Shown here piece after piece: positions 17,343 to 28,264 of a stretch of DNA of 64,000 bases; within the stretch, counting starts at the first letter, position 1; each line of letters starts with the position of its first letter. The DNA is from a virus. Both the position numbers and the translations under genes were made by a program. The notes beneath the pieces were generated by a model. The model worked only from the letters and a program-made list of their open reading frames with translations, did not search any database and was not told the origin of the DNA. The stretch is from the IMG/VR virus record IMGVR_UViG_3300030104_005063, positions 1-64,000 of that record. One strand, written 5' to 3'.

Positions 17343-17367
17343 CTCTTTCATCAAAAGTTTGTATATT
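17339..17367 (+). promoter_or_regulatory. Sigma70-like promoter upstream of ssb
   Basis: TTGACT-N17-TATATT; a second ATATTTAT motif follows at 17403. Confidence 0.65.
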
Positions 17368-17451
17368 ATATAAATTGGTTATCTACAAATTTTACTTTAG
17401 TAATATTTATAGATGTAACAATAATAATAAACATAAACTAGGAGAATAATA

Positions 17452-18195
17452 ATGGACTTAGATGCTATAAAAAGCCGTCTTAATCAGTTACAGAACACAC
17501 AAACAAATGCGTTTTGGAAACCTCAACCTGGAAAATCTCAAATCAGAATTGTACCTTATAAGCACGACAAGAACAACCCGTTTAGTGAGTTGTTCTTTCA
17601 TTACAGTTTAGTTCCAAATAAAACTGTATTGTCACCACTTTCATATGGTCGTCCTGATCCTGTTCAACAATTTGCCGATAAGTTGAAATCAACTGGCAAC
17701 AAAGATGAGTGGATTCAAGGTAAGAGAATCGAACCAAAAATGAGAACTTTTGTTCCTGTAGTGGTTCGTGGTGAAGAAAACGAAGGTGTTAAGTTTTGGG
17801 GATTTGGTAAAACTGTTTATCAAGAACTTCTTGGTATCATAGCCGATCCAGACTATGGTGATATATCCGATGCTACAACAGGTCGTGATATTGTTGTTGA
17901 AAGACAAACACCTGCTGAAGCTGGTAACCAATATGGTAAGACCACCATTCGTGTCAAACCAAATGTTACAGCACTTTCCGATGATTCTAACTCACTTACC
18001 AAGTTGTTAGATGAACAACCAGACATCAAAGAGTTGTATAATGAACCAACTTTTGATGAGTTGAAAGAACATCTTAGTAACTTTCTGAATCCATCAGATT
18101 CTACAGAAGAAACAACAGAAAAAGAACCAGAAATGGTTACTACTGAAGCTTCTTCAAATGTAGAAGACGATTTCGATAAGTTATTTAATTCATAA
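17452..18195 (+). CDS. Single-stranded DNA-binding protein (gp32-like)
   Basis: FWKP..G...IRIVP, GVKFWGFGKTVYQEL, DISD..TGRDI motifs and an acidic tail EDDFDKLFNS. Confidence 0.85.
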   Translation: MDLDAIKSRLNQLQNTQTNAFWKPQPGKSQIRIVPYKHDKNNPFSELFFHYSLVPNKTVLSPLSYGRPDPVQQFADKLKSTGNKDEWIQGKRIEPKMRTFVPVVVRGEENEGVKFWGFGKTVYQELLGIIADPDYGDISDATTGRDIVVERQTPAEAGNQYGKTTIRVKPNVTALSDDSNSLTKLLDEQPDIKELYNEPTFDELKEHLSNFLNPSDSTEETTEKEPEMVTTEASSNVEDDFDKLFNS

Positions 18196-22884: not shown

Positions 22885-24897
22885 ATGATTAAAAAGTTTG
22901 TTCTATCGGAGAATTTCATCAACAAGTATAAAAGAAGAAAAGCTCCTTTCGGTTTTAATGGATTAGGTGAATTAGTTTACATGAGAACCTATTCAAGAAT
23001 CAAAGAAAATGGTAAAAATGAAAGATGGTGGGAAACCGTACAGCGTGTTGTAGAGGGAACTTACAATATGCAAATGAATTGGATTGAATCACATCAATTA
23101 GGGTGGAATGCGTGGCAAGCTCAAAAGTCGGCTCAAGATATGTATGACCGAATTTTCAACATGAAGTTCTTGCCTCCTGGACGCGGTCTGTGGGCTATGG
23201 GTACACCTATCACAGAGAAAAAGGGTTTATATGCCGCCCTAAACAATTGTGCTTTCGTATCAACAAAAACACTCAAAGAAGATTATGCTAAACCTTTCTG
23301 TTTCCTTATGGATGCAAGTATGTTGGGTGTTGGAGTTGGATTTGATACGAAAGGTGCTGGAGAGATAGTAATAAAAGGTATAGATGAAAAAAGAGACGAA
23401 CAAGTCTATGAAATACCTGATACGCGTGAAGGTTGGGTTGAGTCGTTAAAATTACTATTGGAAAGTTACTTTCATGGTCAAGCACCGATGGAATTTGACT
23501 ATAGAAAGATAAGACCAGCAGGAGAACCTATAGCTGGTTTCGGTGGTGTATCAAGTGGGCATGAACCTTTAGAAGAAGTACACGAAGATATTAGAAAGGT
23601 ATTAGAAAAAAATAGTGGAGAACCAATCACTATCACGACCATCGTAGACATCATGAACTTAATTGGTAAATGCGTCGTAGCTGGTAATGTAAGAAGAACC
23701 GCAGAGATTGTATTTGGAGATTCCCATTCAGAAGAGTATTTAGATTTAAAAAATTATAAAGTAAACCCACACAGAGAAACTTATGGATGGACAAGTAATA
23801 ATAGTATATTTGCAGAATTGGGTATGGATTATACAGAGGCTGCCAAACGAATCGTGGATAATGGTGAGCCTGGATTTGCGTGGTTGGATAATATGAGAAA
23901 ATATTCTCGTATGAAAAATGGTGGAGATAATAAAGACCATAGAGCTATGGGTGGTAACCCTTGTTTAGAACAAACTCTTGAGTCATATGAGTTGTGTTGT
24001 TTAGTAGAAACATTTCCAAACAATCACGATTCATTTGAAGATTATGCTAAAACCCTTAAATATGCTTATCTATATGCCAAAACAGTAACACTTGGTAGAA
24101 CACATTGGAGTGATACAAACAGAGTTATGTTAAGAAACAGAAGAATTGGATGTAGTGTAAGTGGAGTTGCTCAGTTTGTTACCAATAGAGGATTAGATGA
24201 GTTCAAGGAATGGTTAAATAATGGCTACGATGTCATCCAAAAATGGGATAAACAATATTCAGATTGGATGGCAGTTCCAAGAAGTATCAAAACCACTTCA
24301 GTTAAACCAAGTGGAACTGTATCTTTACTTGCTGGTGCTACACCAGGTCTTCACTATCCTGAATCAAGATTTTATATAAGAAGAATTAGGTTATCAAAAC
24401 ACTCAGAATTAATAGAACCATTAGAAAAAGCTGGATATAAATTAGAACCAGCATTTGGTTCTGAAGACACTACTATGGTTGTCGATGTGCCCGTAGATGT
24501 AGGGGAAGGTATCAGAACTGCTTCTGAACTATCCATATGGGAACAATTCTCGTTAGCTGCGTTTTTACAACGACATTGGGCTGACAACCAAGTAAGTTGT
24601 ACGGTTACATTCAATCCTGAAACAGAGGCAAATCAGATTGCTCCTTGTTTAAACTATTATCAGTATCATCTAAAGGGTATTAGTTTATTACCAAGACATG
24701 ATTGGGGAGCATATCCACAAATGCCATATGAAGCGATTGATGAAGAAACTTACAACAAAGAAGTTGCAAAACTTGGTAAGTTATCATTTGGTGTGATAAA
24801 GAACGAAGAGGCTGATGTCGATAAGTTCTGTAACAACGATAGTTGTGAAATTCCACCTATGCATGGTGACAATGACGACCAAGAGTATGCTAACTAA
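22885..24897 (+). CDS. nrdJ: Class II (adenosylcobalamin-dependent) ribonucleotide reductase
   Basis: YMRTYSR, FLPPGRGLW, LNNCAF, VAGNVRRTAE, GNPCLEQ.L...ELCCL and TSVKPSGT motifs, plus a C-terminal C..DSC shuttle pair. Confidence 0.92.
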   Translation: MIKKFVLSENFINKYKRRKAPFGFNGLGELVYMRTYSRIKENGKNERWWETVQRVVEGTYNMQMNWIESHQLGWNAWQAQKSAQDMYDRIFNMKFLPPGRGLWAMGTPITEKKGLYAALNNCAFVSTKTLKEDYAKPFCFLMDASMLGVGVGFDTKGAGEIVIKGIDEKRDEQVYEIPDTREGWVESLKLLLESYFHGQAPMEFDYRKIRPAGEPIAGFGGVSSGHEPLEEVHEDIRKVLEKNSGEPITITTIVDIMNLIGKCVVAGNVRRTAEIVFGDSHSEEYLDLKNYKVNPHRETYGWTSNNSIFAELGMDYTEAAKRIVDNGEPGFAWLDNMRKYSRMKNGGDNKDHRAMGGNPCLEQTLESYELCCLVETFPNNHDSFEDYAKTLKYAYLYAKTVTLGRTHWSDTNRVMLRNRRIGCSVSGVAQFVTNRGLDEFKEWLNNGYDVIQKWDKQYSDWMAVPRSIKTTSVKPSGTVSLLAGATPGLHYPESRFYIRRIRLSKHSELIEPLEKAGYKLEPAFGSEDTTMVVDVPVDVGEGIRTASELSIWEQFSLAAFLQRHWADNQVSCTVTFNPETEANQIAPCLNYYQYHLKGISLLPRHDWGAYPQMPYEAIDEETYNKEVAKLGKLSFGVIKNEEADVDKFCNNDSCEIPPMHGDNDDQEYAN

Positions 24898-24907
24898 TGA
24901 AATGCGG

Positions 24908-24968
24908 ACAGGCAGACGACACACCTGTGAATAAAAATGTGTCTTAACAATAACAAAGCTAGGAGACA
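24908..24968 (+). ncRNA. Candidate cis-regulatory H-type pseudoknot (riboswitch-like) in the TonB receptor leader
   Basis: P1 ACAGG/CCTGT, P2 GACACA/TGTGTC, A-rich loop 3; alternative TGTCTT/GAGACA helix over the SD. Confidence 0.5.
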
Positions 24969-24972
24969 GATT

Positions 24973-27705
24973 ATGAATTATCGTAATCTCATCTCTGTTC
25001 TGATGATGTCAGTTGGTCTTGTCTTTGGACAAGCTGTTACTGGTTTTGTTGGAAACGGAGAAGAACCACTTGTTGGAGCAAATCTTGTGGTTGAAGGAAC
25101 TGAGCTTGGTGGCGTAACTGATTCCGAAGGAAAGTTCGTCATCGAAACAGGTACAGGTACTTTCGACTTAACTGCTTCATACATCGGTTATGTATCCCAA
25201 ACCAAAAGTGTAAGGGTTGGGGACATAGTTGGGAGTGTTAGTTTCGACTTAGAAACTGATGTTGTTGCTCTCACAGCACTTGAAGTTTTGGCTTCTCGTG
25301 CCGATGAAACAACACCCGTAGCCTACACTAATGTTAGTAAAGAGGAAATGGAAGTTCGTCTTGGTTCTCAAGACATTCCAATGATTCTTAACACAACACC
25401 AAGTGTATATGCTACTCAACAAGGTGGCGGTGCGGGAGATGCCCGTATCAATGTTCGTGGATTCAATCAGAGAAATGTTGCTGTCATGATAAACGGTGTT
25501 CCCCAAAATGATATGGAGAACGGATGGGTTTATTGGTCTAATTGGGATGGGGTAGGTGATGCTACTTCCTCAATTCAGATGCAAAGAGGTCTATCAGCCG
25601 TCAATCTAGCAACACCATCTATTGGTGGAACTATGAACATTATCACCGATCCTGCTGCCCAAGAAAAGGGTGGAAAGTTCAAACAGGAAGTCGGTGAGGG
25701 TGGATTTCTAAAATCTACCTTGAATTATAACTCAGGTCTAATCAATGATAAACTGGCAGTAAGTGGAACGATTGTTCGTAAAACCGGTGATGGTTTTATA
25801 GACGGAACATGGACAGACGCTTGGGCTTATTATCTTGGTACATCTTATGCTGTATCAGACAAACAGAGGTTTGAGTTATACGCAATAGGTGCACCACAAA
25901 GACATGGTCAGAACCTATACAAACAGAACATAGCAACCTACTCTCAAGAGTTGGCTGGAAGTATCGATGGATATAATGATTCAGCTTATGTTGAAGGGGA
26001 GAAGTTTGAACATGAAGCTGGTAGGTTCTTCAACCAAAATTGGGCTCCAGTATCTTCGGATTACAAAGGACAACAATATTGGTATATGTATGGCGCCAGA
26101 ACAACAGATAGGTACAATCCTAATCTGTTGAATGAAAGAGAAAACTTCTTTCATAAACCACTTGTAAATCTAAACCATTTTTATGATATCAATGATGAGA
26201 TGAGATTATCTTCGGTATTATATTGGAGTGGTGGTTCTGGTGGTGGTACTGGTACTTATGGAAGTGTCAGTAGAAAACCAGCTATTGAAGGAAACCAATG
26301 GTGGGCTAGTTCACCTTGGATGTGGGATTGGGATGCTGAGATTGAACAGAACTCTGCTAATGTAGACTCTGCTTGGTCTGATACAGAAAATCGTTCCACA
26401 GGTATCCTAAGAAACTCAATCAATAGACAGAATACTTATGGTTTGATTTCTAAATTAAACTATGATGTATCAGATGAACTTGAAGTTCAAGTTGGTATTG
26501 ATTGGAGAACTGCTGGTATTGAACATGCTAGAGAAGTTCGTGACTTACTTGGTGGAGATTACTATGTAGACTTTGCTGATGACAATTTTGCTGATGGTAA
26601 GAAAGTTGGGTTAGGTGATATAATTGCTTATCACAACGAAACCACAGTAGATTGGTTTGGTGCTTTCTTACAAGGTCAATACGATACAGAGAAGATTAAT
26701 CTTTATGGTATGGGTGGTATTTCAACCATCGAGTATACTTACAAAGACTTTTTCTCTGTTGAGAAAGAACTTGTAGAAGCTCCATCTATTACAACCTTTC
26801 AAGTAAAAGGTGGTGGTAGATATAATCTTGACGACAGACTTTCGGCATTTGCTAATGTCGGATATGTTCAGAAACCACCAATTCTTGATAATGTAATTGA
26901 CTATGATGGAAATGTATCTACAAATCCAGACAATGAGAAATTTACATCTTTTGAAATCGGTGGTGAGTATGGAAGTGAGTTAGTTGCTATCAAAGGTAGT
27001 TATTACAACACCCAATGGAAAGATAGGAACTTAACTAAATCTGTAACCACAGGTCAAGGTGACTCAGGTGACACAGACATCATTTATTTAACAGGTGTGA
27101 ATCAATCACATTCTGGTGTAGAGGTTGAATCTAAGATTGCTCTACACGAAATGGTGGACTTAGATGTTGCTGTTAGTATCGGTGATTGGTATTTTGATGG
27201 AGATGCGAAGGGTGATTATACTGAGATGGAATACAACGATGATAACCAAATCATTGGACAAACATCTACAGAATATCAGTATGCTTTAAGTAATCTTAAA
27301 GTTGGTGACATGCCACAAACTGCTTATGTTGGTGGATTAACATTAAAACCAATTAAAGGATTGAGTGTACAAGGACTTTACAGATGGTATGACAATCATT
27401 ATGCTGATTGGAGTCCTGATGCTCGTGAGGTTGACGAAGATGGTGCTGATAGGGCACAAGTATGGAAAACACCATCCTATGGTAAGTTAGACATACATGC
27501 TTCTTATAAGTTACCAGAAGTTGCTGGTTTAGACATGACATTAAGTGCTCATTTATTCAATGCACTTGATGATGTTTATATCCAAGATGCAACAGATAAC
27601 AGTAAGTATAATGGGTACGGTGATAAACTTCACTTGGCTCATAACGCTGAAGTATTCTTGGGAACACCAAGAAGTTTTAATTTAGGACTTTCTGTTAATT
27701 TCTAA
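24973..27705 (+). CDS. TonB-dependent outer-membrane receptor
   Basis: AGGAG SD with ATG at 24973; signal peptide, carboxypeptidase-regulatory-like N-domain (PLVGANLVVEGT..G..TD.EGKF), plug (INVRGF...VMINGVP), beta-barrel and terminal PRSFNLGLSVNF with C-terminal Phe. Confidence 0.93.
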   Translation: MNYRNLISVLMMSVGLVFGQAVTGFVGNGEEPLVGANLVVEGTELGGVTDSEGKFVIETGTGTFDLTASYIGYVSQTKSVRVGDIVGSVSFDLETDVVALTALEVLASRADETTPVAYTNVSKEEMEVRLGSQDIPMILNTTPSVYATQQGGGAGDARINVRGFNQRNVAVMINGVPQNDMENGWVYWSNWDGVGDATSSIQMQRGLSAVNLATPSIGGTMNIITDPAAQEKGGKFKQEVGEGGFLKSTLNYNSGLINDKLAVSGTIVRKTGDGFIDGTWTDAWAYYLGTSYAVSDKQRFELYAIGAPQRHGQNLYKQNIATYSQELAGSIDGYNDSAYVEGEKFEHEAGRFFNQNWAPVSSDYKGQQYWYMYGARTTDRYNPNLLNERENFFHKPLVNLNHFYDINDEMRLSSVLYWSGGSGGGTGTYGSVSRKPAIEGNQWWASSPWMWDWDAEIEQNSANVDSAWSDTENRSTGILRNSINRQNTYGLISKLNYDVSDELEVQVGIDWRTAGIEHAREVRDLLGGDYYVDFADDNFADGKKVGLGDIIAYHNETTVDWFGAFLQGQYDTEKINLYGMGGISTIEYTYKDFFSVEKELVEAPSITTFQVKGGGRYNLDDRLSAFANVGYVQKPPILDNVIDYDGNVSTNPDNEKFTSFEIGGEYGSELVAIKGSYYNTQWKDRNLTKSVTTGQGDSGDTDIIYLTGVNQSHSGVEVESKIALHEMVDLDVAVSIGDWYFDGDAKGDYTEMEYNDDNQIIGQTSTEYQYALSNLKVGDMPQTAYVGGLTLKPIKGLSVQGLYRWYDNHYADWSPDAREVDEDGADRAQVWKTPSYGKLDIHASYKLPEVAGLDMTLSAHLFNALDDVYIQDATDNSKYNGYGDKLHLAHNAEVFLGTPRSFNLGLSVNF

Positions 27706-27717
27706 AACGATAAATTT

Positions 27718-27745
27718 AGGGGGGTTGAAATATATCCCCCTTTTT
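27718..27745 (+). terminator. Rho-independent terminator
   Basis: AGGGGGG...TCCCCCT stem followed by a T tract, right after the TonB receptor stop. Confidence 0.8.
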
Positions 27746-27760
27746 ATCAAAGGTATTTAA

Positions 27761-28264
27761 ATGAAAAAGTTATTATTTTTATTATTATTATTATTTGGAT
27801 GTGACGATAGGATTGAAGAACCAAATAAATCAAATATTATAGTTACAATGCTAAGAATACCTAGAATAGAAATATTAGATAATATATGGATTACACCAGC
27901 TCCAATATGGGGACATTTAGAATCAGAAGATAGTATACCCGTTGAAAGAATGATTGTACATTGGTGGAGTAATATGTATTGGGATGAAGATGATTCAAGT
28001 GGACATTACAGATTGTTATCTAATCGTAGAAACAAAGCAATATGGTATGATAAATTTGGTAACAGAGATACTATGGATGTAGATGTAGATACATTAAGAT
28101 GGACTACAGATAGATACTCTGAAGTAGATAGTTTAGGATATTTTTTTAATACACTAAGACCTACAAGAGTAATGCAAAATAAAGGTTCGGGTAGTTATAT
28201 GAAATTGTATTGGAGTATTGAAAATACACTAATAGATTCACAAGAAGTTTTTTTAATGGATTAA
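27761..28264 (+). CDS. Lipoprotein of unknown function
   Basis: MKKLLFLLLLLFG-C lipobox signal. Confidence 0.75.
   Translation: MKKLLFLLLLLFGCDDRIEEPNKSNIIVTMLRIPRIEILDNIWITPAPIWGHLESEDSIPVERMIVHWWSNMYWDEDDSSGHYRLLSNRRNKAIWYDKFGNRDTMDVDVDTLRWTTDRYSEVDSLGYFFNTLRPTRVMQNKGSGSYMKLYWSIENTLIDSQEVFLMD

Follow-up and report, generated by a model that had tools for sequence, protein, structure and literature searches.

The locus considered here raises a simple question: what is a compact RNA pseudoknot doing in the 75-nt gap between two phage genes? The stretch analyzed, hereafter the window, comprises 64,000 nt (positions 1 to 64,000) of the virus record IMGVR_UViG_3300030104_005063, which is 100.5 kb long with a CheckV completeness of approximately 55%, and the gap separates the stop codon (24897) of a gene for an adenosylcobalamin (AdoCbl)-dependent ribonucleoside-triphosphate reductase from the ATG (24973) of a gene for a TonB-dependent receptor, both on the + strand. 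The knot found there is conserved and covaries far beyond chance, and as a cis-regulatory RNA specific to this lineage, located in the 5' leader of the receptor mRNA, it probably controls translation of the receptor. As to how it would do so, we tentatively favor a translational operator recognized by a trans-acting factor, by analogy with a known phage system.

The element is an H-type pseudoknot of 36 nt in the window and 34-36 nt in the family. Its first stem (P1) joins 24908-24912 to 24924-24928 by five Watson-Crick pairs, and its second stem (P2) joins 24918-24923 to 24938-24943 by six pairs; the 5' strand of P2 is immediately followed by the 3' strand of P1, so that there is no loop 2 (L2). 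Loop 1 (L1) has 5 nt (24913-24917), the first three of which (CAG) are nearly invariant and the last two free, and loop 3 (L3) is A-rich, with seven A among its 9 nt (24929-24937) and an invariant run of A at its 3' end. In most relatives L3 has 7 nt (range 4-9) versus the 9 nt of the window, and L1 ranges from 4 to 8 nt in rare members, with base variants in only a few distant ones. The AUG within the 3' strand of P2 is not a conserved start. Beyond the knot lie an A/C-rich, G-poor linker (24944-24960), of constrained length and nonconserved sequence, and the Shine-Dalgarno (SD) sequence AGGAG of the receptor gene (24961-24965), which is conserved in all relatives. An earlier note on this DNA had proposed the same stems and loops, together with the SD and the ATG, and direct inspection of the sequence found every one of these positions to be exact.

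The sequence of the window alone proves nothing about the knot. Its nested folding energy is no better than that of shuffled sequences (z -0.56 and -0.13), and 18 perfect knots of 5 + 6 pairs with short loops occur on both strands of the 64 kb, although only 7 of 20000 shuffles of the gap contain such a perfect knot. The case therefore rests on relatives. A protein-guided search recovered 327 viral contigs with homologues of the receptor, and among the best 80 of these, with receptors at 74-92% identity, the knot was present in all 77 loci that had upstream sequence. Five loci carry 0.5-1 kb inserted between the reductase and the receptor genes, and in them the knot remains approximately 30 nt before the receptor ATG; since it stays with the receptor and not with the reductase stop, it is an element of the receptor leader. 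A second protein-guided set, centered on a receptor of 62% identity, gave the same result and brought in rare variants at positions seemingly invariant in the first. A pattern scan of DNA from viral contigs returned at least 119 stretches; among the matches listed, 117 were the knot leader and two were chance, and the receptor followed wherever the downstream sequence sufficed, except for two loci with a degraded receptor. These two loci (L178:5115-5270 and L191) keep the leader and the first eight or so receptor codons, with one mismatch in P2; their frame stops after 27 codons and no receptor homology occurs within 3 kb, which indicates a degraded or replaced gene. With a covariance model, the knot was found in a single copy in the window as well as in the whole 100.5-kb record. 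Both the relatives and the Pfam and NCBIfam assignments of the genes thus bear out the proposal of the earlier note that the knot belongs to the leader of a TonB-dependent receptor gene carried by the phage.

The pairing itself is maintained by compensatory change. In 52 distinct sequences from the protein-guided loci only, 98.4% of the alignment cells are paired and five of the 11 pairs show changes on both sides; across this alignment and a larger one of 88 distinct sequences, the corresponding values are 97.6-98.4% and 5-6 of 11. None of 500 shuffles reached the observed score or the percentage paired. Among the 88 sequences, the second pair of P1 is C-G in 80 and U-A in eight, the third pair of P1 is A-U in 74 and U-A in 14, the second pair of P2 is A-U in 69 and G-C in 15 (plus four G-U), and the fourth pair of P2 is A-U in 62 and G-C in 26, with no unpaired case at any of the four; a third covarying pair of P2 alternates between G-C and A-U. 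When the partners are slid by 1-3 columns the covariation signal is lost. On a FastTree phylogeny of 133 loci, built from the initial 1500 nt of the receptor gene, at least 12, 18, 7, 6, and 4 changes of state were counted for the five pairs that vary; because of these repeated changes the covariation does not represent one inherited event, with the proviso that recombination between leader and gene could inflate the counts. What had been put forward as a pseudoknot from one sequence is therefore upheld in homologous leaders, in which both stems are kept with compensatory changes.

The distribution of the invariant positions is also informative. The two inner G-C pairs of P1, the three inner pairs of P2 (without variation in the 88-sequence alignment), the first bases of L1, and the last four to five A of L3 do not vary, and all of them cluster around the P1/P2 junction, with the covarying pairs and the free loop bases distal to it. 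Statements of invariance rest on the protein-guided sets, because loci L082-L200 were fetched with a pattern that itself fixes several positions. The exceptions are distant: in two members (L468 and L476) the innermost P2 pair is replaced by an A-C mismatch, and another member has a different L1. By standard H-type geometry, the major groove of P2 would accommodate L1 and the minor groove of P1 would accommodate L3, and invariance clustered at the junction is the pattern that would be expected of a triple-helical core. The outermost pair of P1 is weak, being unpaired in 19 of the 88 sequences, and P1 is therefore effectively 4-5 bp long; the hairpin of P2 has approximately -6 kcal/mol, and both stems are short and marginally stable.

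The spacing between the knot and the ribosome-binding site (RBS) is under constraint. The distance from the end of P2 to the SD ranges from 11 to 27 nt and is 15-19 nt in 97 of the 117 distinct leaders. Approximately 29 nt separate the end of the knot from the AUG, a distance that puts the knot at the 5' border of the stretch that a 30S ribosomal subunit covers; longer linkers often carry, as judged by eye, a small A/U hairpin. The mechanism suggested in the earlier note, an anti-SD helix mutually exclusive with the knot, did not hold as a property of the family. In the window, 24940-24945 can pair with 24963-24968 by five Watson-Crick pairs and one G-U, as a duplex of -8.1 kcal/mol (z -2.0), and the SD is 33% unpaired, rising to 96% when the knot is locked. 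This helix can form in approximately 15% of the distinct leaders and is limited to the subclade of the window. Over all leaders, duplexes between the P2 3' strand and the SD region have on average the energies of shuffled controls (mean z -0.3), the probability that the SD pairs with the knot averages 0.04 and is below 0.1 in 101 of 117 leaders, and co-occurrence of the two anti-SD arms is not significant (Fisher p 0.15). RNAalifold predicted P2 alone from 113 whole leaders, with no conserved helix at the SD or the AUG. The anti-SD helix was thus rejected as a family feature on duplex energies, pairing probabilities, and RNAalifold. Also rejected was the AUG within P2 as an alternative start or a fixed upstream open reading frame (ORF), since its frame relative to the receptor is not fixed (the three frames account for 33, 37, and 47 leaders).

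Taking these features together, the explanation that we prefer, on analogy and with due caution, is that the knot is a translational operator. A trans-acting factor would recognize the folded knot and, once bound, would block or license loading of the 30S subunit on the linker and the SD. By analogy with the operator of gene 32 in phage T4 the factor would be a phage protein; its binding, its identity, and the direction of control are what we infer. This reading is favored because the layout fits the T4 gene 32 operator and because the phage has a gp32-family single-stranded DNA-binding protein (SSB), encoded at 17452-18195 (PF08804, 58 bits) and a candidate for the factor. The fixed distance between knot and SD despite a scrambled linker, the single copy, and the lack of a conserved alternative helix all speak for it. 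Several points weigh on the other side. The gene that would be controlled is that of the receptor, the SSB gene itself has a knot-free leader, and the linker has 15-19 nt versus more than 40 nt in T4. A search for a RegA-type repressor was empty in the approximately 55% of the genome available, as it was in control genomes. Tertiary contacts alone could give the strong sequence conservation, and the knots of unrelated sequence that precede other clades of receptor, if real, would favor a purely structural role. As a separate observation, the leader of the SSB gene (17343-17451) is an unstructured UAA-rich stretch behind a ATATTTAT motif, without a pseudoknot, and resembles those of T4-like phages that are said to lack the gene 32 knot.

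A purely structural role is in fact the alternative that survives best, and we consider it possible, if rather doubtful. The knot would then be a constitutive element that senses nothing and that, within the polycistronic mRNA, shields the RBS of the receptor from the sequence upstream, forms the 5' boundary of a single-stranded standby or S1-binding platform, and/or protects the distal cistron after processing. In its favor, neither an expression platform nor an alternative fold is conserved; the linker is length-constrained, G-poor, and unstructured; and the knot is restricted to receptors that follow another gene on the same strand. It is missing from cellular homologues (55-69% identity), which have neighbors on the opposite strand or approximately 500 nt away. 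Contexts in which receptors of 55-69% identity had no knot include a neighborhood of Lon protease and peptidase U32 genes on a 322-kb contig, a neighboring DnaG gene, and a position behind an SRAP or RecA-like gene. Moreover, five of 42 other receptor leaders, versus 1.8% of shuffles, contain an H-type knot that has an unrelated sequence and ends 23-28 nt upstream of the ATG, a result that is a lead only, this distance range having been chosen post hoc. Two such knots (L464:2365-2394 and L443, approximately 2445-2473, before receptors of 62% and 69% identity) end 26-28 nt before the ATG and share the architecture described here, with a stem of 4-5 bp, an L1 of 5 nt, a stem of 5-6 bp, no L2, and a short A-rich L3. 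The analogous knots of other clades are nevertheless single sequences without covariation, and no closer relatives of the L464 knot that would allow such an analysis were found in viral contigs; the query P0122 likewise gave no matches there. What argues against a merely structural part is that conservation exceeds the needs of pairing, because five of the 11 pairs and most loop bases are unvaried, with few distant exceptions, among receptors that have diverged to approximately 62% identity. The stems, being short and marginally stable, also suit such a part poorly.

Apart from this comparison, two of the knot-free loci (L430, the 322-kb contig, and L444) have receptors of approximately 58-61% identity among cellular genes, with strong SDs, and may point to the lineage of the host or to the origin of the phage gene.

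The remaining functional alternative, that the knot is the aptamer of a new, phage-born class of riboswitch, is in our view unlikely. A small molecule, perhaps a metabolite tied to the cargo of the receptor or to the reductase (e.g., a corrinoid or a nucleotide), would bind at the triplex core near the P1/P2 junction and alter receptor translation; such a riboswitch would work by ligand-dependent compaction at the 5' edge of the RBS and not through a canonical anti-SD platform. Its size and architecture are like those of the preQ1-I and SAM-II/V aptamers, its invariant unpaired bases and junction pairs make a plausible pocket, it precedes a transporter gene adjoining a cobalamin-dependent enzyme, and in the subclade of the window locking of the knot would raise the accessibility of the SD from 0.33 to 0.96. 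Riboswitches in general combine a conserved, covarying aptamer, which the family has, with a conserved platform helix or terminator, which it lacks. Since no expression platform is conserved and the anti-SD helix is confined to the subclade of the window, the riboswitch reading is unproven: 15-19 nt separate the knot from the SD, and the family shares no helix that would exclude the knot. Both L1 (4-8 nt) and L3 (4-9 nt) vary in length, and the cellular homologues of the receptor do without the knot.

The narrow distribution of the knot also argues against a riboswitch, as it is found before one gene in one phage clade. A scan of 185,579 species genomes of bacteria and archaea with the pattern gave at least 120 rows, and one real match was found among those listed, on a 1.5-kb phage-like contig of a metagenome-assembled genome. 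A profile-guided search of metagenomes yielded 80 loci of more distant receptor homologues, of which only the 28 belonging to the phage clade matched the knot model. The earlier note did not recognize the knot as any known class, and this was corroborated by Rfam 15: there was no relevant match in the whole window at the gathering score, and a search of 24700-25200 at E ≤ 10 with permissive filters returned only four weak, unrelated matches (E 1.4-6.6). In INPHARED, a nucleotide search gave no match and a protein search found distant receptors only, in gut phage fragments and megaphages. Full-text literature searches found no description of this motif, and the only earlier reports of TonB-dependent receptors encoded by phages concern marine megaphages (PMC9723777).

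Two further explanations can be dealt with quickly. That the knot is a recoding signal (a stimulator of frameshifting or readthrough) or a structure of the reductase 3' end is suggested by its position 10 nt after the reductase stop in the window, and is hardly credible given that the distance from stop to knot varies from 2 to more than 50 nt, or 0.5-1 kb with inserted genes, and the distance to the receptor start is constant. Chance pairing without function, for which the 18 comparable knots of the window and the insignificant folding z-scores might be invoked, is exceedingly improbable in the face of universal conservation and repeated, independent compensatory changes.

Regarding the genes on both sides, the + strand carries every long ORF of the window, including those for a tail sheath, the gp32-family SSB, a UvsX-like recombinase, a DnaB-like helicase, a family B DNA polymerase, and a clamp loader; the receptor gene sits inside this T4-like replication module, the same one that holds the SSB gene. 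The reductase (22885-24897; Pfam RNR_Alpha and RNR-II_ins_dom), called "nrdJ" in the earlier note, scores 371.7 bits against NCBIfam TIGR02505 (RTPR), above the cut-off, and by this family is of the monomeric triphosphate type rather than the NrdJ diphosphate reductase type. In another locus (L071:3940-3973, and also in the type of L053) the reductase frame enters the knot, with its stop codon within L1 and the P2 5' strand. The receptor gene (24973-27705) encodes 910 amino acids with the Pfam domains CarbopepD_reg_2 (CarboxypepD_reg) and Plug. The ORF lister extends its frame upstream to an ATG at 24937; its start is nevertheless at 24973, because the N-termini of relatives align from there. 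A scan for promoters and terminators found none in the reductase-receptor gap, and a hairpin followed by a T run, like an intrinsic terminator and read directly in the sequence, ends the transcription unit at 27719-27745. Just after it, an ORF of 167 amino acids (27761-28264) with a hydrophobic N-terminus resembling a signal peptide has no match in Pfam, NCBIfam, or PHROG and could be a partner of the receptor.

A second conserved sequence accompanies the knot in most clades. It is a 10-nt box, TTTCACATAC (with G at the fifth base in a few loci), between the reductase stop and the knot, and it sits 1-15 nt upstream of the knot in L016, L026, L052, L081, and most loci of the pattern scan and the second set. 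It is absent at 24898-24907 of the window, having been deleted in its subclade. Pairing of the box with the P2 3' strand or with the end of the reductase coding sequence was discarded, as there was no consistent covariation, and so was a general promoter motif, as each locus has a single copy of the box and the window shows no enrichment of it; a copy on the opposite strand in L323 is merely the Cys-Glu-Ile codons of the reductase. The box is a candidate promoter, processing site, or factor-binding site.

The knot adds to the repertoire of phage RNA a structured element that has no match in Rfam 15 and is found in hundreds of related marine phage contigs. The auxiliary gene that it accompanies is an unusual one, encoding a full-length TonB-dependent receptor beside a B12-dependent reductase within a replication module, and the knot points to a phage that controls, or at least carefully engineers, the translation of this receptor from a polycistronic mRNA. 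Its 34-36 nt make it amenable to direct study by biochemical and structural means. Binding of a protein would extend pseudoknot operators of the gene 32 type beyond autogenous control, and binding of a metabolite would make the knot a new class of riboswitch that originated in phage.

Among the known systems comparable with the knot are viral recoding signals. Frameshift and readthrough knots of the luteovirus type are compact and coaxial, with an A-rich loop 3 crossing the minor groove of stem 1. The knot described here shares with them the compact two-stem form and the A-rich loop 3, and differs in having no slippery site and no fixed spacing to an upstream stop or frame, being located in a leader before an SD.

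The pseudoknot riboswitches also invite comparison. The preQ1-I aptamer has approximately 34 nt, with a P1 of 5 bp, a hairpin loop of 11-12 nt, and an A-rich 3' tail of 7-8 nt whose end pairs into the loop. Total length, the 5-bp P1, the size of the hairpin loop, and an A-rich tail pairing back into the loop are common to preQ1-I (RF00522) and our element. Here, however, P2 has 6 bp and there is no L2, hence no counterpart of the L2 C that pairs with the ligand; the P2 base adjoining P1 is an A paired to U in 88 of 88 aligned sequences (this is the pair mismatched as A-C in L468 and L476). In addition, the SD lies outside P2, 11-27 nt beyond it, the gene context is unrelated to queuosine, and the RF00522 model matched neither the window at the gathering score nor 24700-25200 at E ≤ 10. 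SAM-II and SAM-V, which bind S-adenosylmethionine (SAM), are classic H-type knots with loop-helix triplexes, and SAM-V is marine. In both (RF00521 and RF01826) the 3' strand of the knot includes the SD and the controlled genes belong to methionine and SAM metabolism, neither of which is true here. No match was obtained with the SAM-II, SAM-V, NAD+-II, and other pseudoknot riboswitch models of Rfam 15. Our knot fits poorly with the pseudoknot riboswitches as a group because their SD lies in or beside the aptamer.

The layout does fit that of the operator of gene 32 in T4. There, gp32 spreads cooperatively from a 5' pseudoknot, which nucleates the process, across an unstructured stretch in which the RBS lies. 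The operator consists of a pseudoknot of approximately 28 nt followed by an unstructured stretch rich in UUAAA/UAAA that contains the RBS (PMC535899). The T4 and RB69 operators and the leader of the receptor have in common a small 5' H-type knot, an unstructured A/U-rich stretch leading into the SD and AUG, an intercistronic position in a replication gene cluster, and a phage with a gp32-family SSB. The T4 operator controls the SSB gene itself, autogenously, whereas the knot here precedes a TonB-dependent receptor gene, and the 15-19-nt linker, without regular UUAAA repeats, contrasts with the more than 40 nt of T4; the likeness claimed is one of layout. A pseudoknot in a leader is thus a known kind of element; what is new in this one is the family, the target gene, and the lack of an expression platform.

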